From: Armatimonadota bacterium
GTDB lineage: Bacteria > Armatimonadota > HRBIN16
DNA: 64,000 nucleotides
Reading direction: 5' to 3'
Assembly: GCA_963677485.1 (NCBI GenBank)
Contig: OY781964.1
Coordinates: forward strand, 1,792,001 to 1,856,000
How positions within the stretch are numbered: position 1 is the first letter of the stretch; each line of letters begins with the position of its first letter. Both the position numbers and the translations under genes were made by a program. Below the pieces are notes generated by a model, which searched no databases, was not told the DNA's origin, and worked only from the letters and a program-made list of their open reading frames with translations. Positions 5,962 through 21,041 of this stretch are shown piece after piece.

Positions 5962-7152
5962 CTAGGCCGCCTTCACCTTCAGAACCTGGGCGTGCGAGTC
6001 CTTCATCAGCTTCCCGTCACCGCTCCACACCGCACGGAACGTGCGCTGCCGCTTGTCAAACTGGAAGTGGTCGCTCAACTCAATCTCCAGACCGCCGTCC
6101 TTCAGCACGTAGCTCAGCAGGTTCACAAACGCCATCACCTTCGTGTTCGCAGTCCACACCGGCGCACCACTCGACAGGTTCACGGGCCGTCCGATGAGCT
6201 GCCACTGGTAGCCATCCACCAGGGAGGGAGCCCACAGAGTGTCACCGGTCACCGCATTACTCACGTCGGCGATCATCTGCGCGGTCGATCCGCCCATGAT
6301 CCACTCAGCCCGGCCGAGGTAGAACTCCGGCATACCCCAATACAACGCCTCGATCTCCTTGCGGGTGATCGCGGTCGCACTGGCGGTGGTCTTCTTCAAA
6401 ACCCCGGCGTTCAAAATGCCCTGCAGCGCATCGGCTCCACCGGCACCGTTGATGATCTCGCCCTCCAGGAACTCGGCTAGACCCTCGGCAAACAGTCCGC
6501 GAAGCCACCCTTCTACGCTCACGGTAGAGCTGCTCATGTTCTTATCCACGCCGATAAGCCACTGCGCGGTCTGTGTGACTAGCGGCAACTGACCAGTCGC
6601 CGGGTCCTTCGGAGTCGTGGTCTCGTTCTGCTTCACGTACTGGAAGCCGCCCTTGCTGGTCATGGTCGGCACATTCACCGCCCAGTCGGTCGAGGGCATC
6701 CTCTTCACGCGGCCAACCACTGGGGCCAGCGACTTGGTCAGATCCCAGATCTCGTTGTAGGTCACCGTCGGGATGAGGTAACCGCCCTCTGTGCCGGTGA
6801 CGGCACCAAGAACACGCAGCTCACGGTCATCACCCCGCACCAGGAACTGAGCGAACGCGTCCCGGTACTCCTGGCTAGCGTGCAGCTCGGTCGGCACCAT
6901 CACCCTGTGCTCAGGCGGAGCGGCCCCAACCGCCAGGCGACTCATGCTCACATGCTCCGAGGCGCGCATCTCGTTCATCTCGTCAATGGTCCCGATCTGC
7001 TCATTCAGTGTCTTGGCCTGCGCCATGATCTGGTCACGGCGGCTTCTCTCTTCGTCGGTAAACCCGCGGTTCTCACCCTCAGCGGTGTTCAGCATCTGCT
7101 CCAACTCCGCCAACAGTTGGTTACGCTGGTCAATCAATCTCTTTCGGTTCAT
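5962..7152 (-). CDS. major capsid protein, HK97 family
   Basis: N-terminal coiled-coil delta domain; EGGYLIP, IINGAG...GIL and LIGRPV motifs. Confidence 0.95.
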   Translation of the reverse strand: MNRKRLIDQRNQLLAELEQMLNTAEGENRGFTDEERSRRDQIMAQAKTLNEQIGTIDEMNEMRASEHVSMSRLAVGAAPPEHRVMVPTELHASQEYRDAFAQFLVRGDDRELRVLGAVTGTEGGYLIPTVTYNEIWDLTKSLAPVVGRVKRMPSTDWAVNVPTMTSKGGFQYVKQNETTTPKDPATGQLPLVTQTAQWLIGVDKNMSSSTVSVEGWLRGLFAEGLAEFLEGEIINGAGGADALQGILNAGVLKKTTASATAITRKEIEALYWGMPEFYLGRAEWIMGGSTAQMIADVSNAVTGDTLWAPSLVDGYQWQLIGRPVNLSSGAPVWTANTKVMAFVNLLSYVLKDGGLEIELSDHFQFDKRQRTFRAVWSGDGKLMKDSHAQVLKVKAA

Positions 7153-7757
7153 CGTCCCTCCATTAGCTTCTTCAGCATCATCCAGTCGTTGTTCAGGGTA
7201 GGCTGCGCATTAAGTTCCTCAGCAGGTTTACCCTCTGGTCGCTTGCACCGAGCTTCGTAATAGCTCCTCACAGCCACACTAGTGGCTACATACGCCGGTC
7301 GCACCACCGGACCAACGTCATCGATCTCCCGGATATCTAGCAGCTCCCGCAGCATCACCCCGTCCCCGCGGTCCGTCCAGGCATCCTTCGTCACCCAGAA
7401 CGCGAAGCTGCAGCCCTGCAGGTCACCCCGTCGCACCAGCTCAATCACCTGGTCGCCTATCATCGTGCGGGCCACATCGCCCTCAAACCGCAGACCGTGG
7501 TCATCTGTCGACAGCCGCAGCGTACCGCCCGCCACACTCGCCACCATCTGGTCATAGCTGTGGTTGAACAGGCACACCACTTTATCCATGTTGGTGGTCC
7601 GGAACGCCTCCGGACGGATCACCTCATAGGTGTCTCTGAAAATCATCGTCTCCGAGTTGAACACCGCCGCATACCCGTTGATAGTGCGGCTCTCCTCGCC
7701 AGACATTCGCAGCTCCGCGTTGTGCTGCATCCACCGAAACTGTAGGTTGTCGCTCAC
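7149..7757 (-). CDS. prohead protease, HK97 family
   Basis: INGYAAVFNS, LFNH, DDHGLRFE, GDLQGCSFAF and PAY motifs. Confidence 0.95.
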   Translation of the reverse strand: MSDNLQFRWMQHNAELRMSGEESRTINGYAAVFNSETMIFRDTYEVIRPEAFRTTNMDKVVCLFNHSYDQMVASVAGGTLRLSTDDHGLRFEGDVARTMIGDQVIELVRRGDLQGCSFAFWVTKDAWTDRGDGVMLRELLDIREIDDVGPVVRPAYVATSVAVRSYYEARCKRPEGKPAEELNAQPTLNNDWMMLKKLMEGR

Positions 7758-8953
7758 TTCCTCACACTCCCCGGCTCGCTGTTGCCCACCTGATCCGCAG
7801 CCTGGCCGATCGGCACCATATTCAACGGCACGTAGTATTCATCGCCACCCTCTATCGGGGGCAAATCCTCATACCGTCGTATCTCATTCACACACAGCCA
7901 GCCGTTCTGCTTGGCGATGGCGTACGATGCATATCGCTTGTCCAAGTCGCCTCGTAAAAGGCCGTCGACTTCAAACTTCACGAATATCCGCCCACGCTCC
8001 CATGGCGTCAACAGGCTCCGGCTGATCGATTGCTCCAGCCGCACAATCCAGGGCCGCAACGTCAACGAGTAGAACTCCCTAGCCCGCGCCTCGTCGCTGG
8101 CATATGTCCCTCCGGGTGCCATGACCATATGCATCGGAACACCGAACACGCGGCAGACCTCCGCCACTTGAAACTCCCGGTTCTTCAGAAACTCGCTGTC
8201 CGCGAAGCTGATTGACAGCGCATCGAACTTCACCCCCTGCTGAAGCAGCATGATCCGCCCAGCGTTCGAGGCCCCTTCGTACAGCCGTCGCCACGCGTCG
8301 ATCAGGTTCTTCTCGGCGTCTTCACTCATCTCGTCCGGAGTGCTCAACACCCCAGACGGCTTGGCCCCCTGCCGAAAGTAGCTCTCAGCCAGCGTGTCGG
8401 CAGAGATGGTGATCCCGAACACCGTCCGGAACCTCTCCAGCAGCGAGCTCCCGCGCAGACCGTCATAGCCCTGGCCGGGGATGTGCATCACATCGCTGTC
8501 TGCCAGTTTGTGCGCCGTGCCCGCCCGCGTCACGGTGTAGTTCGGGGTGCCGTCCAACTCGGCATCTGCGTAAACCTCGGCAGGGCACAACGGCCACAAT
8601 TCCGCCGGCCGGGTGTTCTCATCGCGTGCGATCTCCACATACCCGTTGCCCAGCAGCACGATGTTCTCGACCACCGACTGCCAAAATACGCACGGGATCA
8701 TCCGCCGGTTCGGCGTAGAATACAGGAGGGATTGAAGGGGGTGGCTTGGCTTCGGCACTCTGCCATCTTTGGTCATCTGGTATACATGGATCGGCAGCGT
8801 CGCGATGCTCTCGCTGATCACCGCCACGCACCGATGCAACGCTGCGATCTGCATCGCCGCATTCGTAGGCCGACCGTACTTGTCGACCCCGCCGATCACC
8901 CACGGATCAGCAATTCTCTTTTCCTTACGCTGCCACGGCCATCTCAAATTCAC
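7754..8953 (-). CDS. portal protein, HK97 family
   Basis: CVAVISESIATLP, LLGNGY, VCRVFGVP and NEIRRYEDLPP motifs; GTG start at 8953 after GGAGG. Confidence 0.95.
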   Translation of the reverse strand: MNLRWPWQRKEKRIADPWVIGGVDKYGRPTNAAMQIAALHRCVAVISESIATLPIHVYQMTKDGRVPKPSHPLQSLLYSTPNRRMIPCVFWQSVVENIVLLGNGYVEIARDENTRPAELWPLCPAEVYADAELDGTPNYTVTRAGTAHKLADSDVMHIPGQGYDGLRGSSLLERFRTVFGITISADTLAESYFRQGAKPSGVLSTPDEMSEDAEKNLIDAWRRLYEGASNAGRIMLLQQGVKFDALSISFADSEFLKNREFQVAEVCRVFGVPMHMVMAPGGTYASDEARAREFYSLTLRPWIVRLEQSISRSLLTPWERGRIFVKFEVDGLLRGDLDKRYASYAIAKQNGWLCVNEIRRYEDLPPIEGGDEYYVPLNMVPIGQAADQVGNSEPGSVRK

Positions 8954-9116
8954 AGCCCTCCATATACTAGGGGGCAAACAATCAGAAATGGGAAGTGGCC
9001 TGATAATCCAGTAATATACTGGTATTAAATGGAGGATAACCAAAGGATGACACCGTATATATACTGCGGATATTGCTATTAATAGATCAATCGATTTGCC
9101 TTCAAAGGAATGTCAA

Positions 9117-10193
9117 ATGGCTAATAGAAAGCTCGATACAAGTAATCGGTCTACCAAAATTGGCGTGAGAAGTTCATCGTTTATATATGGTAAACAAACA
9201 TTAAGCAAACACCGCCCTGTTCAAACAAGCGAACCCATAGTTGAGAAACAAGACCGGGTTTTTTCTGCTGCGAAGCAGGAGATGATCGACAGATTAATGA
9301 CTAACGCCAAAGAATGGAACCAATGGCGCATCGATAACAAAGATGCCGTTATCGACCTTGATGACACCGATCTGCGAAATGTGAATTTGTGCTCATACAA
9401 CCTTCGTGGAGCGAGGTTAAACAATGCTGACCTTCGAGGTGCTGAACTATATGGGTCCGACCTCAGTGATGCATCACTATGGGGAGCTAATCTTAACGGA
9501 ATAGGCGATAGGACGGACCTTCGCGGTGCTGACCTACGGGGTGCGGATTTCTTAGGAGCTGACTTAAGACAGACGGATTTCGGAATGGCTAATCCACGAG
9601 GTGAAGGAACAGGGACCAACCTAAGCTATGCTGATTTTAAACTAGCATATTTAGATGGAGCCGACCTCAGCGGCGCGGACATAACGGGAACAGGCTTCCG
9701 CGGAGCTAGCCTGATGGGCGCAGACGTGAGGGGTGTGATCTACGATCGAAAGTTAATGGACGGCAACTACAGAGGTATACGGATAGACGGTTGTTATGGT
9801 GATGCTGTATTTAAACGTGATGCCCAGGATCAAGACTACATAGATACCCTTGAACCAAGGTGCCGCCGAGGTTGGCGAAAACTCCTGTTTTCATGGTGGA
9901 GATTCACCGATTATGGACGTAGTATTCCAAGTGTAGCGTTAGTAGCCATTACGTGCATGATCGCATTTGGTTGCTTATTCTACATACCTGGAGTAACCAC
10001 CCATACAACTAAAGGATTCGACATAACACCCCTCTATTTCTCAATAGTCACATTCACGACACTAGGGTATGGCGATGTCTCAGCTAATAACACCTTCGGG
10101 CAGTGCCTTGTAGCAGTAGAAGTGGCTCTCGGTTATATTACCCTTGGACTCCTCCTGGCTATATTGGCTAATACCGTTGCCCGCCGCAGCTAG
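9117..10193 (+). CDS. pentapeptide-repeat protein fused to a 2-TM K+ channel (Ion_trans_2) domain
   Basis: Many A(D/N)LxG pentapeptide repeats; C-terminal TM-pore-TM with LYFSIVTFTTLGYGD filter. Confidence 0.9.
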   Translation: MANRKLDTSNRSTKIGVRSSSFIYGKQTLSKHRPVQTSEPIVEKQDRVFSAAKQEMIDRLMTNAKEWNQWRIDNKDAVIDLDDTDLRNVNLCSYNLRGARLNNADLRGAELYGSDLSDASLWGANLNGIGDRTDLRGADLRGADFLGADLRQTDFGMANPRGEGTGTNLSYADFKLAYLDGADLSGADITGTGFRGASLMGADVRGVIYDRKLMDGNYRGIRIDGCYGDAVFKRDAQDQDYIDTLEPRCRRGWRKLLFSWWRFTDYGRSIPSVALVAITCMIAFGCLFYIPGVTTHTTKGFDITPLYFSIVTFTTLGYGDVSANNTFGQCLVAVEVALGYITLGLLLAILANTVARRS

Positions 10194-10310
10194 CTACTAC
10201 GGTATGTCATAATGGAATCGAAAAACCCCTTAAGCCTCTACAGCCTCGGCTGCAGGCTCAAATTGAGGGGTTCTTATTCAGTAGCACATTTACATGTCCC
10301 AGAGGTTGTT

Positions 10311-10535
10311 ATGGATATGAAAAAATACGCGAATCGCCGGGGCAATTCGAGTGTGGAGTGGTATGGTATAGCCCCCGACCGTATCGAAGTGATATTTGTC
10401 AATCGACACCGATTTGTGTATACCAACGAGTCCGTGGGGCAGGGGAAAGTAGCATTCATGAAAGTACTTGCGGAATCCGGTGTGGGCCTCTACACCTTCA
10501 TCATGAAACATATAAATAAGGACTACGACCCGTAA
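10311..10535 (+). CDS. small KTSC-like hypothetical protein
   Basis: MKKYANRRGNSSV..YGI....IEVIF....FVYTN...MKVLAESGVGL..FI pattern of a small conserved family; RBS AGAGG. Confidence 0.6.
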   Translation: MDMKKYANRRGNSSVEWYGIAPDRIEVIFVNRHRFVYTNESVGQGKVAFMKVLAESGVGLYTFIMKHINKDYDP

Positions 10536-10730
10536 CCCTCAATCGGGAACATACGGCGCACGGTCCTCATACACGCTGCGCTTCGGTTGCCCTCCGCCCA
10601 GCATCGCCCGGCTGAGTGCCGTCACCAACGCTGCGATGCAGTCAATCCGACCGTCCGACTTCGACTTCGTCGGCTTGATGTTGTCCGCGTCATCCTTGAT
10701 GACTGCCACATTGTTTGCACACCAGCCCGC
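10536..10730 (-). pseudogene. orphan duplicate of the terL 3' end (63 codons plus stop)
   Basis: 195-bp direct repeat of 12390-12584 with 17 mismatches by manual alignment and only 2 amino-acid changes. Confidence 0.92.
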
Positions 10731-10888
10731 CAAAACATGGTCGACCCTCCAGCTCCTTAAGATCAACACCGCAAGCGTCCCACCGATCCATGCCCTTCGT
10801 GCGAACACGCTGTGTCCAAGTTGACTAGGATACAGCGAGACCGACACTAGTTGCTCCACCTAAAGCTGCAGTCACACCACGATCATGG

Positions 10889-11857
10889 TCATGCGCTGAG
10901 ACTGAACTCGGCTGTCAGTTGCCGTAAAGCTTCGCCTGCCTTTCCACGGACATCTGGAGGCACACTCATGTCTTGGGTCAACTGCGTCAGATATGGAAGT
11001 ACACCCCTGTGGCGAATTGTATCATCTAACATCATCCGACGCTCATCATTCAGCGAGCTATTTTTAAGTGCTGCTTCAATGCACTCACTTACCAATCGCT
11101 GGTTACAATGTTCCAGCATCGCTCCCGCTCGCCAAGACGGACGCAGCATCGGAGATCGTGCAACCACATCAACCAGTTTACTGATGGCTTGACGATTGTC
11201 CGCCACTCGTCTCAATGCCCGCGTGAGGTGCCGTCCGAAATAGGCAGCACAGACGGCGACATATGCCACACGGTCATCATCAAGCGTCAGGTCATCTAGA
11301 TGCAATACGATTAGGGAAAACTCTCTTAGGGTCAGGATAACATCGCCAATACCCACCCATGTTTTGAAAGAGTGCTGAAGGATCTGCTGGATATTCTGAA
11401 TCTCTTCCGTTTGTTCTGTAGGGGTGGCTCTGAGTTGACGTATGATCCTTTCAAGGTTCTGGGCAAGCGTCCTTGCACCCTCCATGGTATTCTCATACTT
11501 GAAGTATCTGATCCAGCCGAGATCGAATGGTACATCATCTCGATCTTGTGTAATCAGCACTACATGGCGCTTTATGGCATGAGCAAGTCCAAGCTCATAG
11601 AAGACGTTCGGATTCCTGTGGGTCAGATCTGCAATGATGATCTCAGATCGCAGAATGCTATCGAATATCCCCGACATAATATCCAGCGAAGAGAAGCTTT
11701 CATCCGCACGGTGGGGTTTCATGCCGAGGGCTTCGAGGGCAGGCCGTATGCCAGCGTCGTATACGGAATCCATCTGATCGCCAAAAGGCATGATTATAAA
11801 ACACAGCCCTGGTTCTACGGGTACATCCGTCCTGAGTAGAATTTCACACGGTTTCAT
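10889..11857 (-). CDS. nucleoside 2-deoxyribosyltransferase-like (NDT) domain protein with a helical C-terminal domain; candidate defence effector
   Basis: CFIIMPF...RAD...IIADLTHRNPNVFYELGLAHA...VPFDL motif. Confidence 0.82.
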   Translation of the reverse strand: MKPCEILLRTDVPVEPGLCFIIMPFGDQMDSVYDAGIRPALEALGMKPHRADESFSSLDIMSGIFDSILRSEIIIADLTHRNPNVFYELGLAHAIKRHVVLITQDRDDVPFDLGWIRYFKYENTMEGARTLAQNLERIIRQLRATPTEQTEEIQNIQQILQHSFKTWVGIGDVILTLREFSLIVLHLDDLTLDDDRVAYVAVCAAYFGRHLTRALRRVADNRQAISKLVDVVARSPMLRPSWRAGAMLEHCNQRLVSECIEAALKNSSLNDERRMMLDDTIRHRGVLPYLTQLTQDMSVPPDVRGKAGEALRQLTAEFSLSA

Positions 11858-12198
11858 TCAATACCCCCTTACAGGAGAGGTTATAAAGTGGTGTAAATTG
11901 CCAGCTTCCTTGGAATGTTAGTTGCTATTTGGTTGTATGGGTAAGCTATCACCTGCTTTCCTGTTCTGCTACGAGTTGTATATACCCTTTTCCATTGGGG
12001 TTGTCAAGGCCGCGAAACGCCCGAAGGGGAAGCCTTTACTAGTCCAGTGTGAAAGGGCACGATATTCGGCAGAAGAACAGGCGAATTACTACTTCAACAG
12101 CCCAATAATCTGACATGATGACGATGACAACAACCATGGTAAGTAGTCTATATGTGAACCATGCATCATTGAGTCGGGTATCAAAATAGGGTGCCAAC

Positions 12199-12380
12199 AT
12201 GACGATCTATAAGAATCTATCCGGTGAGTCTAATGTCAAGAATTATTCAACAGGCGATAACTATATCACAGTTATATCTGACGGGGCGTTTTGCCAGACA
12301 TGTGTATATACATATGAGATGCCAGGTTGTGATGAATTGAACAAATGAAGATATTGGCTGAGAGTGGAATTGTTTCCTAA
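12199..12380 (+). pseudogene. frameshifted paralog of the KTSC-like gene at 10311
   Basis: MTIYKNLSGESNVKNYSTGDNYITV...VYTY, then in a shifted frame IEQMKILAESGIVS*, matching MKVLAESGVG. Confidence 0.7.
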
Positions 12381-12392
12381 TCCGCCCTCCCC

Positions 12393-14138
12393 TCAATCCG
12401 GAACATACGGCGCACGCGTCTCATACACGCTGCGCTTCGGCTGCCCTCCGCCCAGCATCGCCCTGCTGAGCGCCGTCACCAAGGCCGCGATGCAGTCTAT
12501 CCGTCCGGTCGACTTCGACTTCGTCGGCTTGATGTTATCTGCGTCATCCTTGATGACAGCCACATTGTTCGCACACCAGCCCGCTACAGGATCACCGTTG
12601 TGACGAAGCGCATTGTATTTCCATTCCTGCCGCACATATGGCTTGATCGCGCTAGTATTGACCCCATCTGCCTTCATCTGCTCAAGAACTAACTGGGCTT
12701 CCAGCACCCGACGATCCTGATCCTCCTCGAACTTCATGCGGTATTCCTCAACCTGCTCCGGTGTGGCCGCTCCAAGAACCACCGCCGCTTCCAGTTCCTT
12801 GGATGGTGCCGACAGTGTGATGTATCCCTGCCTGCACTGAACCATCGTGATCTTGTCCTCCTCCTCAAGCTCCGTCGCCAGATGCAGCGCTCCCCACGGG
12901 TCATATGCCAGTTCTGCAAGCTTGTATCTTGCAGCGATATCCTTGATCTCCTCACGGATATACCGGTAGTCAATTCGCTCGCCCGGTGTAGGAATAAGCC
13001 ATCCCGCACGCGCCCATTCGGCATAGTCCACACCATCCCGCCGAGACCGTTCAACCATCGTGGCCTCCGGGGTCCAGGTTCGCCAGATCACGTCATACGA
13101 ACCATCGGCATTCGGAAATACCAGGCACAGCGAACTCAGGTCCATCGTGCTCGAAAGGTCGAGCCCCCCATAGCAAACTCGGCCGTCAAGCGGCTCAATT
13201 GGTTCTTTGCAGCACGCCTTCCAACGGCTCATGTCCAGCCATCTGTTCACCTGGTTCGTCCAGATATTGAGGTGGAACCTCTTGAAATCCGGCTGGCTGC
13301 TCGGTGTATCGATAGCCTTCTGACACGCCTGTTCCATATACTCGCGGTTTATCGTCACACCCCAACTAGGGTTAGCCGCCGCCCACACCTCTTCAGATGT
13401 CCAGTCCGCATCCTCCTCTGCCTCATAGATCACGGGATACCAGCGGTCATTCTGGACCGAACCATTCAATACCCGCTTGGCATAGTCATACTGCTCCCAA
13501 CAAAAAGTGGTCCGGTCGAAACCCGCAGTGGTCAACATCATGATCATCGGCTGACGCCTGGACACCATGCCTGTATCCAGCGCGGTGTAGAGCTCCCGGT
13601 TCTTGGCCACCAGCAACTCGTCATACACCACAAAATGCGGGTTGGTGCCCAGCTTCGCATCGGCGATCCGCGACAACGCTGTAAAACTGCTGTGCTTCTT
13701 GGGGTAGATCAGGGTGAATTCACTCTCAATAGGCCGCAGCTTATTCCATAACGACGGCTGTGCTTGAAGCATATTCACAGTGGATTTAAACACAATACTT
13801 GCCTGCGGTTTGTCACCAGCAGCCGAGTACACCTGGGCGCCTGGCTCACCGTCCGCCATCATCATATAGCTTGCGATCGGTGCGTTGAATGTGGTCTTTC
13901 CGTTCTTTCGTGGCACGAAGACAAAAACATACCGAAACCTGCGGTAACCAGTTTGCCTATCTACCCAGCCAAAGATGTCCCGGATGACATGGCGCTGCCA
14001 GTGCATGAGTTGAAGCTTCTGGCCAGCCCATTCACCTTCCCAAAGCCGGAGGCTCTCCATCCAGCGGCATATTCGATCTGCTTTAACCTCATCGAATCTC
14101 CATCGGTCTGTTTCGTATAGCTCTAGATATGGTCTCAC
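12393..14138 (-). CDS. terL: terminase large subunit
   Basis: Walker A VPRKNGKT, Walker B VVYDEL, MLTTAG, nuclease GGLDLSSTMD and GRIDCIAA. Confidence 0.97.
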   Translation of the reverse strand: MRPYLELYETDRWRFDEVKADRICRWMESLRLWEGEWAGQKLQLMHWQRHVIRDIFGWVDRQTGYRRFRYVFVFVPRKNGKTTFNAPIASYMMMADGEPGAQVYSAAGDKPQASIVFKSTVNMLQAQPSLWNKLRPIESEFTLIYPKKHSSFTALSRIADAKLGTNPHFVVYDELLVAKNRELYTALDTGMVSRRQPMIMMLTTAGFDRTTFCWEQYDYAKRVLNGSVQNDRWYPVIYEAEEDADWTSEEVWAAANPSWGVTINREYMEQACQKAIDTPSSQPDFKRFHLNIWTNQVNRWLDMSRWKACCKEPIEPLDGRVCYGGLDLSSTMDLSSLCLVFPNADGSYDVIWRTWTPEATMVERSRRDGVDYAEWARAGWLIPTPGERIDYRYIREEIKDIAARYKLAELAYDPWGALHLATELEEEDKITMVQCRQGYITLSAPSKELEAAVVLGAATPEQVEEYRMKFEEDQDRRVLEAQLVLEQMKADGVNTSAIKPYVRQEWKYNALRHNGDPVAGWCANNVAVIKDDADNIKPTKSKSTGRIDCIAALVTALSRAMLGGGQPKRSVYETRAPYVPD

Positions 14139-14536
14139 AGCATCTCATCTAACGCATCCAATTCTTCATCGTCTACGGGTTGCACCCTCAACCTGGCCAA
14201 TGGAGTAAGCCCGAACTCTGTTTGATACCGCCTCACCTGATCAAGCGCCTGGGCCTTGATACGTGTGGCTGGATGGGCCACCGTTCCACGCTCGTTCGAC
14301 AGCATCAACCCCTCGCGTTGGAGTAATATATCGGCCTCGATCATGGTGTTGTAGGCGCTACAATAAGCCACCATCGCGTCGTAGTCTATGTCGTTGGCCA
14401 CCCCGCCAAGTTTAGGCAGGATGCGCTTCCACAACAGCTTCCCATGCGGCCCCATCCATGCCGGAGGCTGTACACATTTGCTGATTTTCGTTCCGCTAGT
14501 AACCGCAGCCTTCGGCTTCCGCCCTCTATTCCCCAT
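14135..14536 (-). CDS. terS: terminase small subunit, P27 family
   Basis: RGRKPK, PPAWM, HPA and EFGLTPLARLR motifs; overlaps terL start. Confidence 0.92.
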   Translation of the reverse strand: MGNRGRKPKAAVTSGTKISKCVQPPAWMGPHGKLLWKRILPKLGGVANDIDYDAMVAYCSAYNTMIEADILLQREGLMLSNERGTVAHPATRIKAQALDQVRRYQTEFGLTPLARLRVQPVDDEELDALDEML

Positions 14537-14570
14537 GCAGCCTCCATCCAATTACCATTCACTCACCCGA

Positions 14571-14775
14571 CGCCATCGCAGCGCACGCCATCGCAGGGCA
14601 CGGCATCGCAGCGCACGGCACGGCATCGCTGCGCACGGCATCGCAGCGCACGGCACGGCATCGCTGCGCACGGCATCGCAGCGCACGGCACGGCATCGCT
14701 GCGCACGGCATCGCAGCGCACGCCATCGCAGCGCACGCCATCGCAGCGCACGGCAGCGGAGCGCATCGCAGGGCA
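14571..14775. repeat. array of 41 pentamers (CGGCA/TCGCA/GCGCA variants) with 15- and 35-bp higher-order units
   Basis: Read directly; in perfect 5-bp phase over 205 bp. Confidence 0.95.
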
Positions 14776-14779
14776 TGTT

Positions 14780-14880
14780 AAATCTCGCGAAAAACTCAAT
14801 TTCGCATTTCCCCGCACGCGATTACACGCCCGGTAGATTGGTCGATGATATTTCAACATATCGACCCCCCTCCCCCGTGG
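14780..14880 (-). other. putative cos (packaging) region
   Basis: Between HNH and terS; minus strand reads GGGGGAGGGGGGTCGA...ACCGGGCG...CGCG...GCGAAATT, resembling cos regions of HNH/P27 phages. Confidence 0.55.
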
Positions 14881-15200
14881 ACACGGCCATGGCAGACGCG
14901 GCACAAGCTTTGAAGGTTGCTGTGCTTGTACTGGTCACCACCAACAATCAGGGGCACGATGTGATGCACGATCTCCATCGGACTAACAACACCACGCTCC
15001 TGGCAAAGCTCACAGAGTGGATGCTTCTTCACATAGGACGCACGCGTCCGCTTCCACTTCGCATCGTAGCCACGATCATGAGCACTCGATCTCGTGTCGT
15101 CATCCCAGGCTCGCTTGGTGTGATGCTCGCAGTATCTGGTGCCGCGGACCAACTCACGGCATCCAATGAAAGCGCATGGCTTGAGAGGTGCTTGGCTCAT
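14853..15200 (-). CDS. terminase-associated HNH endonuclease (HK97 gp74-like)
   Basis: RGYDAKW, PLCELC, VHHIVP, NLQSLCRVCH. Confidence 0.93.
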   Translation of the reverse strand: MSQAPLKPCAFIGCRELVRGTRYCEHHTKRAWDDDTRSSAHDRGYDAKWKRTRASYVKKHPLCELCQERGVVSPMEIVHHIVPLIVGGDQYKHSNLQSLCRVCHGRVHGGGGSIC

Positions 15201-15562
15201 TCAATCACGTCCAGTGCAGAGCGTCCGAAGGCCTCTACAAGCACGGTGATGACCCCACAGCTCGACCATGCGTTAAGCTTGCCACATGCACGTTCAAAGG
15301 CCAGGTTGACCGCCCTGGTGCAGATATGCAGGAAGTCTGCTATCTCAGCAGCCGACACGTCATACAACCTGGCCACCAGCACAATGCATTCGGTGGGGGA
15401 GATCACCTCAGCCCTGAGCGCAACGGTCACCTCCTCCTTGACTAACTCAGAGCAAGCAGAGCCTGGCGGCCAATAGCTGGGTGTGGTCAGCCGTTCCGCG
15501 AGCACCTCCACATCGGTAAGCACTACCAGGTCACGCCACGGGTTCTTAGTCACAAACGGCAT
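15197..15562 (-). CDS. putative transcription regulator with sigma region-4-like HTH
   Basis: SAAEIADFLHICTRAV....ERACGKL HTH-like segment; position just before the packaging module. Confidence 0.5.
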   Translation of the reverse strand: MPFVTKNPWRDLVVLTDVEVLAERLTTPSYWPPGSACSELVKEEVTVALRAEVISPTECIVLVARLYDVSAAEIADFLHICTRAVNLAFERACGKLNAWSSCGVITVLVEAFGRSALDVIE

Positions 15563-16389
15563 CCCTCCGCATCATAGTTCATCCACAGCACCTCTACAGC
15601 CGTATCACCAGTGCCGTTACGCCCGCAGCTAGACGGCTTCACCTTGGGCGGTGCTTTCACCACCCGCCAGCCAGACAGTGCCATCGTATACAGCTCGCTA
15701 TCGTATCCGCTGATCGCCACCCGACCTTTGCACCTCTGGCAGAGTTCAAGCAGCTCGGTATGCTGACGGTCATTCATCTCGTTCTGATACTGCGCCGTTT
15801 TGCTCGATCTTGACGCCAGCACATAGGGCGGGTCGAGGTAGAACAACGCCTCCGGACGGTCCCACCGCTCGATCACTTCACGTGCATCCGCGCACTCGAT
15901 CACGACCCGGCGCAGGCGCTCTGCCACCGGGTATAGGCGGTCCACTGCTGTGATCCACTTCGAACACATGCCATTCATGCCGTTCGCAGACGAGTAAGCA
16001 CGGCCCCAGTTGGACGCCTCCTTATGACGGCCGTAGAAGCCAAGCACCGGAAGCATGAACCACATCCTGGCCCGCTCGATCATATCGTCGACCTGGCTCA
16101 GTCCCTTGTTCATGTCGATCGCCATCGCATATTCATGCTTGCTGTTTGGGGTGAGTTTCAATCGGGTAATGAGCTCGTCCGGGTGGTCTCTCAGCACCCT
16201 GAAGAAGTTCACGCAGTTGAGATACAAGTCGTTGTAGACTTCGTTCTTGGCAGGCTCCCGGTTAAGGAGCACGGCAGCCGATCCACCGAACGGCTCGATA
16301 TAGAATTCAGAGGCGGGTAGATTGGGCAGTATGAAGCCCAACTGGCTGTTCTTGCCACCAAAGTAGCTGAACGCGGTAAGCTTGTGCAT
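15550..16389 (-). CDS. DNA adenine methyltransferase (Dam/D12 class), orphan
   Basis: YFGGK, EPFGGSAAV, VYND and YLDPPY motifs. Confidence 0.93.
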   Translation of the reverse strand: MHKLTAFSYFGGKNSQLGFILPNLPASEFYIEPFGGSAAVLLNREPAKNEVYNDLYLNCVNFFRVLRDHPDELITRLKLTPNSKHEYAMAIDMNKGLSQVDDMIERARMWFMLPVLGFYGRHKEASNWGRAYSSANGMNGMCSKWITAVDRLYPVAERLRRVVIECADAREVIERWDRPEALFYLDPPYVLASRSSKTAQYQNEMNDRQHTELLELCQRCKGRVAISGYDSELYTMALSGWRVVKAPPKVKPSSCGRNGTGDTAVEVLWMNYDAEGCRL

Positions 16390-16776: not shown

Positions 16777-17252
16777 AACACCTTCCCGTATCGCTTGCCA
16801 GATAGCGCAGCCTGGCCGGATGTCAGTGCTACGCCACATACGACGCATGTCTCGGCGGTCGGTATTGGTCGATTTGTCGTAATAGTGCTTGTATCTGTAG
16901 ATATTCTAGCACTATCTAGCAGTTGGTTGTCAACATCCACGTCGGCGGTCCCATACCCGGCAAAGCGCAAGGCTCTACCCACAGCCCCACTTTCGGCTTT
17001 TTCGACGTAGTCGGGGAAGCTCTGGCGGGTCTCCTGCTTGTGTGCTGTGGCCACCACCGTGCCGGTCTCGCTCATCACAGTAGCGGCGGCCAAGCAGCTA
17101 TCGCCGTCGACCGTGACTTCGCAGATGATGCCCCAGTCTGGGTGTTCGGTCCTAAACCAGGCGATGGCTGCACTCACCGGCAGATACGTCCGGTTCCCTT
17201 GCACCTTGATCAGGTGATCTGATGGGTTAAACCCCTTCGGTTCGTTACTCAA
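16746..17252 (-). CDS. putative ssDNA-annealing/recombination protein (Rad52/Sak-like)
   Basis: YLPV...WFR.EHP...EKAESGAVGRAL..AGYG motif; C-terminal CxxC...CxxH. Confidence 0.55.
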   Translation of the reverse strand: MSNEPKGFNPSDHLIKVQGNRTYLPVSAAIAWFRTEHPDWGIICEVTVDGDSCLAAATVMSETGTVVATAHKQETRQSFPDYVEKAESGAVGRALRFAGYGTADVDVDNQLLDSARISTDTSTITTNRPIPTAETCVVCGVALTSGQAALSGKRYGKVLCSEHQKAAK

Positions 17253-17538: not shown

Positions 17539-18074
17539 CCTCCCAGCAGACCGGGAAGTGACCGCAGCGAGTCGCCGATGGACCCCATTCCAGACCGACG
17601 CCCTTCAACCATAGGCCGTTCCTCGATGGGTTTGTCCAGGACGTGCTTGCGTAACTCCCCATATGTCACCCTGAACTCCCGGCTAATATCCTCCGATGTC
17701 ATCTCGCAGAGCCGGTAATATCCGATCGTGGCCACGGCTTTTGCGATGATGGGGTGGCTGTATTTCGGTTGACCTTGATAGCGGTTGAGGGTCTCACGCA
17801 CCTCCCACAACGCATCCGCCACAGTCGGCACGCCTTCGATCTGGGCGTGTTCACGCGCCTCCACCACGTAATGCAGCACTGCACCTGGCGTTCGTGGCAT
17901 GAAGTTCGACTCTTTGGTCATCAGGAACTTATCAAGAGCGGCGTCAAACTCATCGTCAGTGATGTCGTGGCGTTCGATCTGAACCCTCCACATGGTCTGC
18001 TGCTTCTGGCTGTATTCAGCACCGTAGGTGATGGCAAAGAAGGCCATCGCGTCGGCAAATCTTTCATCGGTCAT
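17529..18074 (-). CDS. replication protein, helicase loader/inhibitor-like
   Basis: Directly follows the initiator; W..V......Y...P...HPII..AV..IG...LC...F...Y pattern. Confidence 0.55.
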   Translation of the reverse strand: MTDERFADAMAFFAITYGAEYSQKQQTMWRVQIERHDITDDEFDAALDKFLMTKESNFMPRTPGAVLHYVVEAREHAQIEGVPTVADALWEVRETLNRYQGQPKYSHPIIAKAVATIGYYRLCEMTSEDISREFRVTYGELRKHVLDKPIEERPMVEGRRSGMGSIGDSLRSLPGLLGGCK

Positions 18075-18933
18075 TGTAGAGTTCTCCCATCACATTCGCG
18101 GCGTTAGCTCTGGCCCGCGCCTCGAGTTCATCATCAGACAACCTCGGCGGTTTGCTACCACTTCCCGGCGGTTTGGACTGCATGGCTTCGGCATCGGTCA
18201 AGTGCCTGAGCGTGTATGCCAAGCTCCACACGTTCAGGCTCTGTGGGCTGCATTTGGTTCTAGCGTTGATCCATGCGGCGGCGATCCTGGTGGGTGGCCA
18301 CCCGGAGGCGAGGGCTTGTTTCATGGCCCGCAGCAGTGGGGTTACCTCGCTGCTGGGCGGCTCCGGAAGCCCGGCCAGCGAGTAGGTCTCGATCACGGAG
18401 CGGTAGGGGTCCGGCTTCGGCTCTTTGGGTTTTGGAGGTTGAACGGGAGGGTGTTCAGCCGCTTCGGCGTCAGCCGAACCCGTAAGGGAATCTTCGTTCA
18501 ATGAGTCTCGTTCAATTGGGTATCGTTCGGGTCTAGATTTTAGACTACCGGTAGTCTGTTTTTTAGACTGGGGTAGTCTATTTTCTGGACTACCTGGTTG
18601 ATCATCTAGACTACCATCACCCTGGTCATCATCGGGTACCATCATGGTGTAGAGGTTGCTGGCTGGGTCGCCGTCATCGTCGTATCTAGCCGTCTTTACC
18701 ACCAGCCCTTTTTGGACGAGTTCTTTGACCGCCTCGACAGCAGATGCACGGCAAACCCCGGCATCGCTCGCGATGGTAGCATAACTTGGCCAGCATTTGC
18801 AGGTGTTGCCATCCGACCTGTCAAGCAGACATGGGTAGACAGCTTTTGCCGATGCGGACAGGCTTCGCCATAGCCCGGTTCGTATAATCGAAGACGGGAA
18901 TGGCGTAAATTTCTGTGCGGGTTTGAGCCTCAA
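18064..18933 (-). CDS. phage replication initiator (N-terminal HTH_36-type)
   Basis: LSASAKAVY..L...CWPSYATIA...V.R......KELVQKGLV...SNLY; TTG start after GGAGG. Confidence 0.85.
   Translation of the reverse strand: MRLKPAQKFTPFPSSIIRTGLWRSLSASAKAVYPCLLDRSDGNTCKCWPSYATIASDAGVCRASAVEAVKELVQKGLVVKTARYDDDGDPASNLYTMMVPDDDQGDGSLDDQPGSPENRLPQSKKQTTGSLKSRPERYPIERDSLNEDSLTGSADAEAAEHPPVQPPKPKEPKPDPYRSVIETYSLAGLPEPPSSEVTPLLRAMKQALASGWPPTRIAAAWINARTKCSPQSLNVWSLAYTLRHLTDAEAMQSKPPGSGSKPPRLSDDELEARARANAANVMGELYNDR
18529..18615. repeat. iteron-like repeats; putative phage replication origin
   Basis: Four ~22-bp imperfect palindromic units (GGTAGTCT...AGACTACC) inside the initiator linker, as for lambda O. 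Confidence 0.7.
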
Positions 18934-19104
18934 TGTGTGCCTCCCGCCGTGACTAATAATGAGTCTATGATCCTCGCCGAGCAACACATGGCAACGTCAC
19001 GGTAAGATATTACTGTGTGCTCATTTCCTTCATTAGCAATGTAGTAATCATTTGAGGTACTATATTTGCGTATACATATATAAACTATATCCGGAGGTCC
19101 CATC

Positions 19105-20145
19105 ATGGCCGTACAAGACAAACAGAAAGCACTCGATATCGCCCTGGGGGTCATTGAAAAGCAGTTTGGCAAAGGCTCCGTGATGCGACTGGGCGACAAA
19201 ACCGGTATGCAGGTGGAGTCGATCCCCACCGGATCCATCGCACTCGACTATGCGCTGGGCATCGGCGGCGTACCGCGTGGACGTATCGTGGAAATCTACG
19301 GCGCGGAAAGCTCCGGTAAAACCACCCTGGCACTGCAAATCGTGGCGGAAGCACAGCTTAACGGCGGCATCTGCGCCTTTGTGGATGCGGAACATGCTCT
19401 GGACCCCGATTATGCAAGCAACATCGGCGTGAACATCGACCAGCTCTATGTCTCGCAGCCCGGCACGGGTGAAGAGGCACTGGAGATCATGGACGCGCTG
19501 GTACGCACCGGTGCAATTGATGTGATCGTGCTGGACAGCGTGGCGGCATTGGTACCGAAAGCGGAAATCGAAGGCGAGATGGGTGATGCCCATGTGGGCA
19601 TCCAGGCGCGTTTGATGAGCCAGGCGATGCGCAAAATCGGCGGTTCCATCAGCAAGACCGGAACCGTGGCGATCTTCATCAACCAGTTGCGCGAAAAAAT
19701 CGGCGTGATGTATGGCAACCCCGAGACCACTCCCGGCGGCCGCGCGCTGAAGTTCTGGGCCAGTGTGCGTCTGGATGTGCGCCGCGTGGACAGCCTGAAG
19801 CAAGGCACCGATGTGGTGGGCAACCGCGTGCGTGTGAAAGTGGTCAAGAACAAGGTGGCCCCGCCCTTCCGGCAGGTGGAGTTTGACATCATGTTCGGCA
19901 AGGGTATCAGCAAAATCGGCGGCGTGCTGGATATGGCCGTGGAAAAAGACGTCATTAAGAAGAGCGGCACATGGTTCACTTACGGCGAAGTCCGGCTGGG
20001 ACAGGGTCGGGAGAACGCCCGTACCTTCCTGACTCAGCATCCCGATGTGTTTGCCGAGGTAGACCAGAAGACCCGCACCATCCTCAATGGCACCCCCGTA
20101 GTGGGGCCTGTCAGCACAGATGAAGAGGAACCAGAGGACGAGTAG
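19105..20145 (+). CDS. recA: recombinase RecA
   Basis: [54 protein letters not shown]. Confidence 0.99.
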
Positions 20146-20166
20146 TACCGGATTTCGATGATTGAC

Positions 20167-20200
20167 CAACGGGTGGCTGACATGCCGCCCGTTGTGTTTT
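20167..20200 (+). terminator. intrinsic terminator after recA
   Basis: CAACGGGTGGC/GCCGCCCGTTG stem followed by TGTTTTT. Confidence 0.75.
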
Positions 20201-20237
20201 TACGCCGACCGGATGACTGTTGATGTGGTATATTTAC

Positions 20238-21041
20238 TCAGCTTCTCACTTTTGATATCACCCATGCAATCCCAACCAGTATAAAGGATACAGCTGCGAT
20301 CGCAGGTCCAGATGGAACGTCGAGAGTGATCGACATCGATAACCCCACTATCGTTGCGATGGAAGCCGCTCCGATGGCGACAGCGAATACTCTTTTCATA
20401 CTCTGAGTGATCAGCAGTGCTGTCACAGCCGGCATAACCAAAAAAGCGAATACCAACAGCGTCCCAGCCAGCCTGATCGACATCGAGATCACCACACCCA
20501 GGATAATGAAAAAGAACATATCCCAGGCTGATGACCGGATGCCTGAGGCTTGAGCTGTTTCTGCATCGAAGGCGGAATACATAAACTGCTTCATAAACAG
20601 CGTATGAAGCAAGATGGCGGCTATTGCCACCCCCGCCATAGTCCATACCTGAGGCATCGTGACAGTCAAGATATCGCCAGAAAGCACATCCAGCATATGC
20701 CCCTCACCCTGGGCACTTTTGGCCACGAACAACACAGCCAAAGCTGATGCCAACGCATAGCCTATACCTATGAAACTCTCCTGGGTAATCCGTTTGTCTT
20801 TTGGCTTGACGGAGAAGGCAGCCACACCGCCCATAGTGAGTGTGAGTGCTACCACCGATGGGTTCCAACCGAGAAGCATGGCAAGTCCGACACCAGCACT
20901 TGACACCTGAGCAAGCGCTGCCCCGACGAACACCACTCGGCGAAGCACCACATATACTCCCAGATATGCGCATACAATGCCAACTACCAGGCTCCCCATG
21001 AGAGCTACGCGGAGAAACGAATCGTGGAACATACTAAGCAT
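20238..21041 (-). CDS. Zn/Mn-type metal ABC transporter permease (ZnuB/MntB family)
   Basis: LGVYVVLRRVVFVGAALAQ, FDAETA, GTLLVFAFLVMPA, DVPSGPAI. Confidence 0.92.
   Translation of the reverse strand: MLSMFHDSFLRVALMGSLVVGIVCAYLGVYVVLRRVVFVGAALAQVSSAGVGLAMLLGWNPSVVALTLTMGGVAAFSVKPKDKRITQESFIGIGYALASALAVLFVAKSAQGEGHMLDVLSGDILTVTMPQVWTMAGVAIAAILLHTLFMKQFMYSAFDAETAQASGIRSSAWDMFFFIILGVVISMSIRLAGTLLVFAFLVMPAVTALLITQSMKRVFAVAIGAASIATIVGLSMSITLDVPSGPAIAAVSFILVGIAWVISKVRS

Follow-up and report, generated by a model that had tools for sequence, protein, structure and literature searches.

The stretch of DNA analysed here (hereafter the window) comprises 64,000 nucleotides (nt) of the genome of an Armatimonadota bacterium (GCA_963677485.1, contig OY781964.1, positions 1,792,001 to 1,856,000 of the forward strand) and carries the packaging and head genes of an HK97-type prophage on its minus strand. 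In this prophage, P1, the 3' end of the large terminase gene terL is found twice between terL and the portal gene, each time followed by different accessory genes. From the comparisons below we consider it probable that the terL-portal junction is a moron hotspot, that the swapping of cargo uses the conserved final ~60-80 codons of terL as its left homology arm, and that stacked cassettes arise through an illegitimate join. This stretch encodes the best-conserved part of the nuclease domain, and the hotspot lies directly behind it. Two sibling prophages of the same genome, P2 and P3, provide the closest comparison.

The interval is bounded by a complete, active terL (12393-14138, minus strand; 581 amino acids (aa), Pfam TerL_ATPase and TerL_nuclease) and the portal gene (7754-9043, minus strand; Pfam Phage_portal, E 6e-94). 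The portal open reading frame (ORF) is called from 9043; similarity to the P2 and P3 portals begins only at about 8972-8998 (blastn), which places the true start probably near 8946. A repeat search returned a single direct repeat of 195 nt, 10536-10730 against 12390-12584, with 91% identity, a spacing of 1854 nt and an E of 8e-75 for the pair in its own genome. Copy 1 (12390-12584, minus strand) consists of the final 63 codons of the active terL, the stop codon and the next 3 nt. Copy 2 (10536-10730, minus strand) has the same extent, with its stop at 10539-10541, and is an orphan without terL upstream; the fragment matches TerL_nuclease positions 239-283. In the pairwise alignment the edges of the repeat are sharp. 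The similarity begins abruptly 63 codons before the terL stop, with nothing in common between the copies further upstream, and ceases 3 nt past it. The spacer that joins the outer cargo gene to the orphan end (10731-10888, no strand) resembles neither terL nor the sibling prophages. The G+C content is 0.38-0.53 in 9000-12300 and 0.55-0.64 in the flanking phage genes.

The two copies differ at 17 of 195 nt, 12 of them in synonymous codons and five in the two residue-changing codons, and the encoded ends are 97% identical as protein. By the Nei-Gojobori method dN is 0.032 and dS 0.344 (ratio 0.09), and the orphan gives dN/dS values of 0.05-0.09 against the active ends. It is slightly closer to the active P2 end (93.3% identity) than to the P1 end in its own neighbourhood (91.3%), with 79% identity to P3. 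A preliminary description of this DNA had reported the duplication with the same difference counts and had called the cargo AT-richer, and both observations hold. It had also proposed that both terL ends evolved under selection in different phages. The evidence agrees: purifying selection between the copies, taken together with small genes that are only distantly alike and unrelated cargo behind them, argues that the two units came from different phages and not from duplication in place.

Further evidence came from the siblings. The genome holds three related terL genes, those of P1, of P2 at 640.5 kb (90% aa identity) and of P3 at 1.47 Mb (78% aa identity). In P3 the gap between terL and portal is just 170 nt and empty. 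In P2 the order is terL, a secreted FGE-sulfatase-domain protein, a degraded terL end, a convergent small gene, a kinase of 1018 aa (a PocR-PAS-HisKA-HATPase-receiver hybrid histidine kinase) and portal. This second orphan of the genome lies 1.2 kb downstream of the P2 terL; about 53 codons are recognisable, with 62% aa identity, a dN/dS of 0.45-0.75 and no start codon upstream of the homology. Identity between P1 and P2 is 98.9% in the 3.7 kb upstream of terS and 94.5% in the 16.6 kb from portal on; inside the interval the two prophages share only the inner orphan and its small gene, at 79%. The near-identical flanks around a mostly unshared interior indicate that the interval turns over much faster than its surroundings. 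As expected of a moron hotspot, the content is variable between syntenic genes (an empty gap, one stack and another stack) and the G+C of the cargo is unlike that of the backbone. The siblings, one with an empty gap and one with a different stack and an orphan end of its own, thus bear out the proposal that the interval is exchangeable. The P3 gap (G000:C1:1473663-1473831) contains a long GGAG/CTCC-rich inverted repeat that is absent from P1 and P2.

The P1 and P2 terL genes are themselves mosaic, with about 75% identity over nt 1-700 and 90-100% over nt 700-1746. Within the second part, nt about 1170-1400 (window 12740-12970) are 97-100% identical to P2 (G000:C1 641.7-641.9 kb) against a background of about 92%, a near-identical tract that suggests recent gene conversion between co-resident prophages. 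The P2 orphan is also of two kinds. Its terminal 48 nt (45 nt of coding sequence and the stop, plus the next bases) match the active P1 end at 47 of 48 positions, and the 114 nt upstream carry 50 differences from it (last 48 nt up to the stop against those 114 nt, Fisher p about 1e-6). The simplest reading of this alignment would be a crossover about 16 codons before the stop that brought in a fresh tail together with what follows it.

The same arrangement was found in another phylum. Arcanobacterium hippocoleae DSM 15539 has three sibling terL genes, and two of the three prophages have an orphan between terL and portal. In the first (locus L065) the order is terL, two unknown genes, a response regulator, a histidine kinase, an unknown gene, the orphan, an unknown secreted protein and portal. 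This orphan, 5.2 kb downstream of terL, covers 74 codons with 84% nt identity, a dN of 0.07 and a dS of 0.80 (ratio 0.09). The second has terL, a gene of 192 aa, an extra 2.3 kb with the orphan and two genes, and then portal; its orphan covers about 61 codons and is frameshifted by a 1-nt deletion. The third has terL, one 192-aa gene and portal with no orphan, and its terL and 192-aa gene are the same as those of the second. Two genomes of different phyla therefore each have three sibling prophages with an orphan in two of the three, and the exchangeable terL-end pattern described from the window is repeated in an unrelated genome.

Other features of L065 were noted. A leader of ~130 nt occurs three times directly ahead of cargo genes (11580-11710, 15222-15351 and 16794-16875), and two of the three follow a terL end. 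The cargo proteins of 238 aa and 215 aa have a similar signal-peptide-like N-terminus and are 36% identical. At 17891-20634 the portal ends early (360 aa, Pfam positions 2-276 of 321) and is followed by a large serine recombinase gene; either another element was inserted there or the prophage is defective.

Of 151 genomes in the family of Arcanobacterium, the Actinomycetaceae, 38 had a match when searched for TerL_nuclease, with ten C-terminal-only fragments in short frames among the matches; an eleventh apparent fragment (G523) is cut by a contig end and was left out. Nine fragments in other genomes of the family were delimited by tblastn. Eight comprise the last 74, 82, 82, 90, 122, 124, about 174 and 182 codons, and one is internal (81 codons). 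Seven of the nine have no full terL nearby. In two genomes of the family identity is 96.8% through the host flank and the first ~195 nt of the terL fragment; they then diverge over the remaining fragment and all of the cargo, and one continues like the fragment and leader of a third genome. On this alignment the pair is a second, independent example of cargo exchange in which the crossover fell inside the terL end. Together the chimeric ends show crossovers within the segment, and the terL end therefore acts as a homologous anchor for cassette exchange. A TerL_nuclease search at class level added only divergent full-length terL genes and no usable orphans; one small fragment, in genome G586, was set aside.

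Three of the family loci have further features. At L197 6545-6784 and L199 4592-4837, bare 82-codon terL 3' fragments with different cargo adjoin the same pyridine-nucleotide-disulphide oxidoreductase gene of the host; next to neither of them were phage structural genes detected, and a complete terL lies 11 kb downstream in L197. At L196 8447-9438 a 74-codon terL fragment stands beyond an Amidase_3 (endolysin-like) gene and is directly followed by a convergent Abi_2-domain gene, the same layout as that of the small gene in the window; part of this block is rearranged in L199 12044-14616.

To determine how common such content is, we used an alignment of 14 terL proteins as the query and retrieved the best 80 loci each from species-representative genomes and IMG/VR. 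All of the surveyed terL loci were 34-45% identical to the query. Portal lies downstream in 68 genome loci and 72 viral contigs, and the gap exceeds 350 nt in 23 of the 68 and 20 of the 72. Ten of the larger inserted ORFs were scanned: three encode ParB-DNA methylases, one each a TauE, an SBF and an EamA transporter, one each an LRR, an FRG and a GmrSD-like protein, and one an unknown protein. The terL-portal gap is thus a common insertion place for mixed cargo. Closer relatives were not found: a search with the single terL protein gave none in genome contigs, viral contigs or 60 related genomes, the nearest database terL proteins (79%, 71% and 63% identity) are on short contigs, and a search of 50,697 phage records returned one 77-nt portal match.

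These observations can be brought together as follows. When related phages recombine, or a phage recombines with a prophage remnant, the outcome would in most cases be a clean replacement. Occasionally the right-hand join would be illegitimate or out of register and fall inside the resident terL, for example in a crossover of co-resident or tandem sibling prophages. The recombinant would then hold a stack: first an entire terL and the cassette belonging to it, and behind these the 3' end displaced from the other terL, with the cassette of that phage. With one of its two terL copies entire, it would be viable. In this account the orphans are resident ends that have been displaced. Such an end would be without function; it could decay, as in P2 and the second Arcanobacterium prophage, or could serve again as a crossover site, and its last codons would then be refreshed along with the cassette that follows. 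In the P1 and L065 orphans the low dN/dS shows that most of the divergence arose within working genes, and hence that the displacement was recent. The presence of several siblings in both genomes suggests co-resident relatives as the exchange partners. The duplication, the signature of purifying selection, the variable content among the siblings, the recurrence in another phylum and the chimeric ends are observations, and we infer from them that the join was illegitimate, in what order the cassettes arrived, that co-resident siblings took part and whether the cargo brought any benefit; in P1 the newcomer cassette cannot be told from the resident one, because both orders need one illegitimate join at 10730/10731.

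Several results weigh against this account. The first is rarity. When each locus was searched with its own last 100 terL codons (tblastn, E<=1e-3), a second terL end was found in one of 78 testable genome loci (L065) and in none of 75 testable viral contigs, and among 229 records of a phage collection that match the P1 tail none matches twice. Given this rarity, the process may be confined to genomes with several sibling prophages. Secondly, no donor phage for either cassette was found in our searches, which leaves no parental junction to compare. Thirdly, in the window's own 195 nt the 26 variable sites among the active P1, orphan P1 and active P2 ends are interleaved and give no crossover point. 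Finally, the 5' limits of the orphans are clustered: in the four cases from intact prophages the distance to the stop is 74, 63, about 61 and about 53 codons, and three of the seven fragments without a nearby full terL start 74-82 codons before it. A random join does not predict such clustering. It is possible that survival bias is responsible, since long direct repeats delete the outer cassette; that signals for the neighbouring cargo have to be kept; or that the region is truly hot for breaks.

A bolder version of the same idea, which we put forward only as a speculation and think unlikely, is that the last ~60-90 codons of terL are a general homology-based capture site for cassettes with an attI-like role. 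Phages would stack accessory and defence genes there, chromosomes with a bare terL fragment, such as the one beside the host oxidoreductase gene in two Actinomycetaceae, would strip cargo from incoming phages, and the clustered limits would be due to a specific event that starts the exchange, for instance a break or a pause in the conserved block.

The clustering could also point to a site-specific mobile unit, a terL 3' end with its cargo that enters a defined region of terL by means of an integrase, an integron-like recombinase or a homing nuclease acting in trans. In two phyla the limits fall within some ~30 codons around the H-G-G-x-P-V-x-x-W block, those of the intact prophages at the block or immediately upstream, and in the Actinomycetaceae units of fragment and cargo occur outside the terL-portal context, next to the host oxidoreductase gene and beyond the endolysin gene. 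Against this, the limits vary by up to 20 codons in the intact prophages and by more in the remnants, the junction spacers have nothing in common, and none of the four intervals read contains a recombinase gene. In particular, no recombinase or integrase, and no IntI-type tyrosine recombinase beside the array, was found among the ORFs of 6000-16000 (the 1854-nt unit included) or in the P2 and P3 intervals. The search for attC- or att-like sites in 8900-12700 gave just three short inverted repeats, none at the cassette borders and none repeated, and an Rfam scan gave no match above threshold. With limits many codons apart and neither a recombinase nor a shared site, we rank this mechanism low and regard it as distinctly improbable.

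We hold it to be still less probable that the orphan ends are selected for a function, be it as a promoter, terminator or 3' untranslated region for the cargo or as a TerL C-terminal peptide that hampers the packaging of competitors. The window's orphan does sit within a 106-aa ORF with a GTG start, similar minimal lengths are retained in the four cases, prophage remnants keep a terL fragment with cargo, and the last ~16 codons of the P2 orphan are nearly intact in an otherwise decayed sequence. This preserved tail is explained equally well by the recent crossover, and the relaxed dN/dS and missing start of the P2 orphan and the frameshift of the second Arcanobacterium orphan are not what a selected peptide would show. 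In a consensus scan of 8800-12700, promoter-like and terminator-like sites were no commoner than in shuffled sequences.

Duplication of terL end, small gene and cargo in tandem and in place, followed by divergence, would account for a direct repeat with a homologous small gene behind each copy, and is very improbable, being already contradicted by a dS of 0.34 under strong purifying selection (unexpected for an untranslated orphan), by small genes about 30% alike, by cargo unrelated in family and strand, and by an orphan that resembles the terL end of P2 more than the adjacent one of P1.

An assembly artefact that joined the alleles of two strains, a danger which the preliminary description had raised, or those of two sibling prophages, which might mislead an assembler where three related ones occur in a genome, is equally hard to credit. 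Logan contigs from four runs of two studies, one of which may be the source sample, were aligned to the region. One contig spans 10674-12432 in three of the four runs, in the fourth two overlapping contigs reach 12356, and further contigs span 10492-10685 and 12409-12636. All have 0 differences, every repeat border is bridged and there is no sign of a mis-join. The genome was also assembled as one contig, and a like architecture with other content stands at the P2 locus and in another phylum. A joined form from which the unit had looped out was not seen among the contigs of the four runs, which cannot reveal rare forms.

Homologous cassette exchange at the terL end thus remains our preferred explanation, and we turn to what the cassettes contain. 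Each terL end of the window is followed by a small convergent gene. The inner one (10311-10535, plus strand; 74 aa) is intact, lies 3 nt from the orphan stop, matches phrog_17428 (E 1e-13) and is 86% identical in nt and 80% in aa to the P2 copy. The outer one (12199-12380, plus strand), which ends 12 nt before the terL stop, is a pseudogene that matches the hidden Markov model (HMM) of the family with an E of 1.8e-6 over model positions 1-46. Its frame changes at 12345-12348 and about 17 C-terminal codons are lost; past the break the conserved M-K-x-L-A-x-x-G motif resumes in another frame. Both genes match the HMM of one ~75-aa family, and their mutual likeness is only about 30%. A profile search of 1.84 billion representatives recovered 639 representative relatives at E<=1e-3, mostly of ~75 aa, and a word-based search found three proteins only.

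The small genes had been described as KTSC-like. Pfam, including KTSC (PF13619), gave no match for those of the window or P2 even at E<=10, and six of 40 aligned family members match Pfam KTSC with a best E of 0.02, below the gathering threshold. By these profile comparisons the small gene belongs to a separate ~75-aa family, KTSC-like in pattern and not KTSC by the rule of Pfam. KTSC is termed a DNA-binding domain in one article (PMC9503650). Comparison of the family with solved structures gave chance matches only, and the protein atlas unnamed clusters only. Among 400 genomes of the phylum one other has a member, in a chromosomal non-phage setting, and the small gene is therefore no general neighbour of terL. 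The observation of a convergent gene behind each terL end is accurate for the window, with one copy intact and one frameshifted, and the KTSC assignment fails by Pfam threshold. As a constant head of the cassettes the gene has to be given up: it heads three of the four cassettes in this genome and none in Arcanobacterium.

The two cargo genes of the window are unrelated in family and opposite in strand. The outer one (10889-11857, minus strand) encodes a protein of 322 aa with an N-terminal domain like that of nucleoside 2-deoxyribosyltransferases (NDT) and TIR proteins (NDT/TIR-like) and C-terminal armadillo/HEAT-like repeats. Residues 29-126 match the PADLOC TIR effector model PDLC00733 (E 1.4e-9), and matches to Pfam are below the cut-offs (NDT PF05014, 18.5 vs 28.8 bits; CAP12-PCTIR_TIR, 13.6 vs 24.7 bits). 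An AlphaFold2 (AF2) model from a 68-row alignment had a predicted local distance difference test (pLDDT) score of 93.6, compared with 39 from the single sequence. In this model the first ~145 residues are NDT-like: the best Protein Data Bank (PDB) matches are NDT chains (E 2e-3, template modelling (TM) score 0.58 on the target), and a SPARTA TIR appears lower among the matches. The predicted domain has a flavodoxin-like fold and a conserved candidate catalytic glutamate, Glu88 (E88) in a YELG motif, which is invariant in the 68 sequences. Elsewhere the N-terminal domain is fused to Hsp70, kinase, FGE-sulfatase, TPR and DUF4062 partners. Fusions of this kind are typical of effector domains in conflict systems, and we take the outer cargo for a putative effector. 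In the database proteins P0214 and P0216 the domain is joined to FGE-sulfatase; a stand-alone FGE-sulfatase protein is the outer cargo of P2 (G000:C1:642352-643314). As for a donor of the NDT-like cassette, 27 of 400 other genomes of the phylum match, in the N-terminal domain only.

The inner cargo gene (9096-10193, plus strand) encodes 365 aa in which pentapeptide repeats are fused to a two-helix K+ channel pore. It is over both Pfam cut-offs, with 92.1 bits for Pentapeptide and 35.3 bits for Ion_trans_2 (cut-off 22.5), and its translation carries a TLGYGD filter, in agreement with the T-x-G-Y-G of two-helix K+ channels. The preliminary description had called the locus a defence hotspot. The NDT/TIR-like protein, the only one with a match in the defence library (to one effector model), supports that reading in part, and the rest of the cargo is mixed: the K+ channel fusion, the FGE-sulfatase protein, the hybrid histidine kinase, the two-component pair and the secreted proteins. 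With five proteins scanned, PADLOC found no complete defence system; one domain of one protein matched one model.

The intergenic regions of the cassettes contain repeats. The outer cargo gene and the broken small gene diverge from a region (11858-12198, no strand) that has a dispersed repeat at about 11885-12029, with matches of 41-126 nt and 71-85% identity at four other places in the genome (blastn). Between the channel gene and the inner small gene an inverted repeat (10221-10275, plus strand) forms a hairpin and is also dispersed, with copies of about 86% identity at two other places; it scores 27.2 bits against the Rfam abiF RNA, below the gathering score of 37. The predicted DNA folds of the spacers and the orphan end were no more stable than those of shuffles. 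Upstream of terL, terS (14135-14551, minus strand; Pfam Terminase_4, E 1.7e-18) is separated from an HNH endonuclease gene (14853-15200) by a tandem array at 14570-14776, with a period of 35 nt, about five copies and subunits of 15 and 20 nt. No comparable array stands at that place in P2 and P3, whose terS genes are diverged. The array could be a set of terS recognition repeats near cos or one of the periodic intergenic repeats of this genome.

The locus shares features with several known systems. In Rhs and contact-dependent inhibition (CDI) loci a full gene is followed by downstream fragments, each with a conserved piece at its start and a variable module peculiar to it; fragments and main gene can recombine, and the arrays grow by displacement. 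The terL orphans likewise start with part of a conserved region and lack the 5' part, and the earlier analogy with Rhs/CDI orphans is apt as a description of how the locus works. The differences are that the repeated piece is here the conserved end of an essential packaging enzyme and not the junction to a toxin tip, that the variable part consists of separate downstream genes on either strand and not of a C-terminal tip with an immunity gene, and that TerL function is unchanged when modules are swapped. According to the modular theory of phage evolution (Botstein; the lambdoid 'linker' sequences), short conserved boundary sequences serve as crossover points. Here too homologous crossovers in a short conserved border stretch would move the neighbouring module between diverged phages; in this case, however, the stretch codes for the TerL nuclease C-terminus, and out-of-register products persist as stacks. 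Integrative elements such as phage 21 and e14 in icd, and those that integrate in tRNA genes, bring a replacement 3' end for their target gene. As in those elements, a mostly synonymous replacement end keeps the target gene whole, and the native end that it displaced forms the far-side direct repeat. Unlike them, the present locus has no integrase or defined core site that we could find, and its limits vary by many codons (53, 61, 63 and 74).

The locus belongs to the class of phage morons and their hotspots (see also Rousset et al. 2022, PMC9122126), among them the hotspots of phage P2 (the phage of that name, not our prophage). The old/tin and Z/fun hotspots of that phage have been described (bioRxiv 10.1101/2024.10.15.618418). 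The likeness lies in cargo of varied composition, with mixed defence and host-fitness genes, between conserved syntenic structural genes. The difference is that leftover terL 3' ends mark the present hotspot and record earlier exchanges, and the passages of the phage P2 work that we consulted mention no duplicated ends of flanking genes. In the literature searched we found no account of duplicated or displaced terL 3' ends. The locus is not an integron, an integrase-borne island or a recognised defence system. The word 'system' used in the preliminary description is too strong, as no dedicated machinery was seen; what we describe is a clear, recurrent footprint of the entry of cargo into phage genomes and no new molecular machine.

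Phage mosaicism and cargo hotspots are known, and the record of how the cargo entered is usually erased. Here the leftover terL ends are scars that date and order the exchanges, and the chimeric ends suggest that the crossovers fall in a single short coding stretch within an essential gene. The clustered limits of the orphans pose a concrete, testable question on phage recombination. If the pattern is general, C-terminal-only TerL nuclease matches, either downstream of a full terL or alone in a chromosome, would be a simple computational marker of cargo islands and of their history. It would also explain how unrelated cargo builds up at one place without a recombinase, and would suggest a way of loading cargo into phages through terL-end homology.

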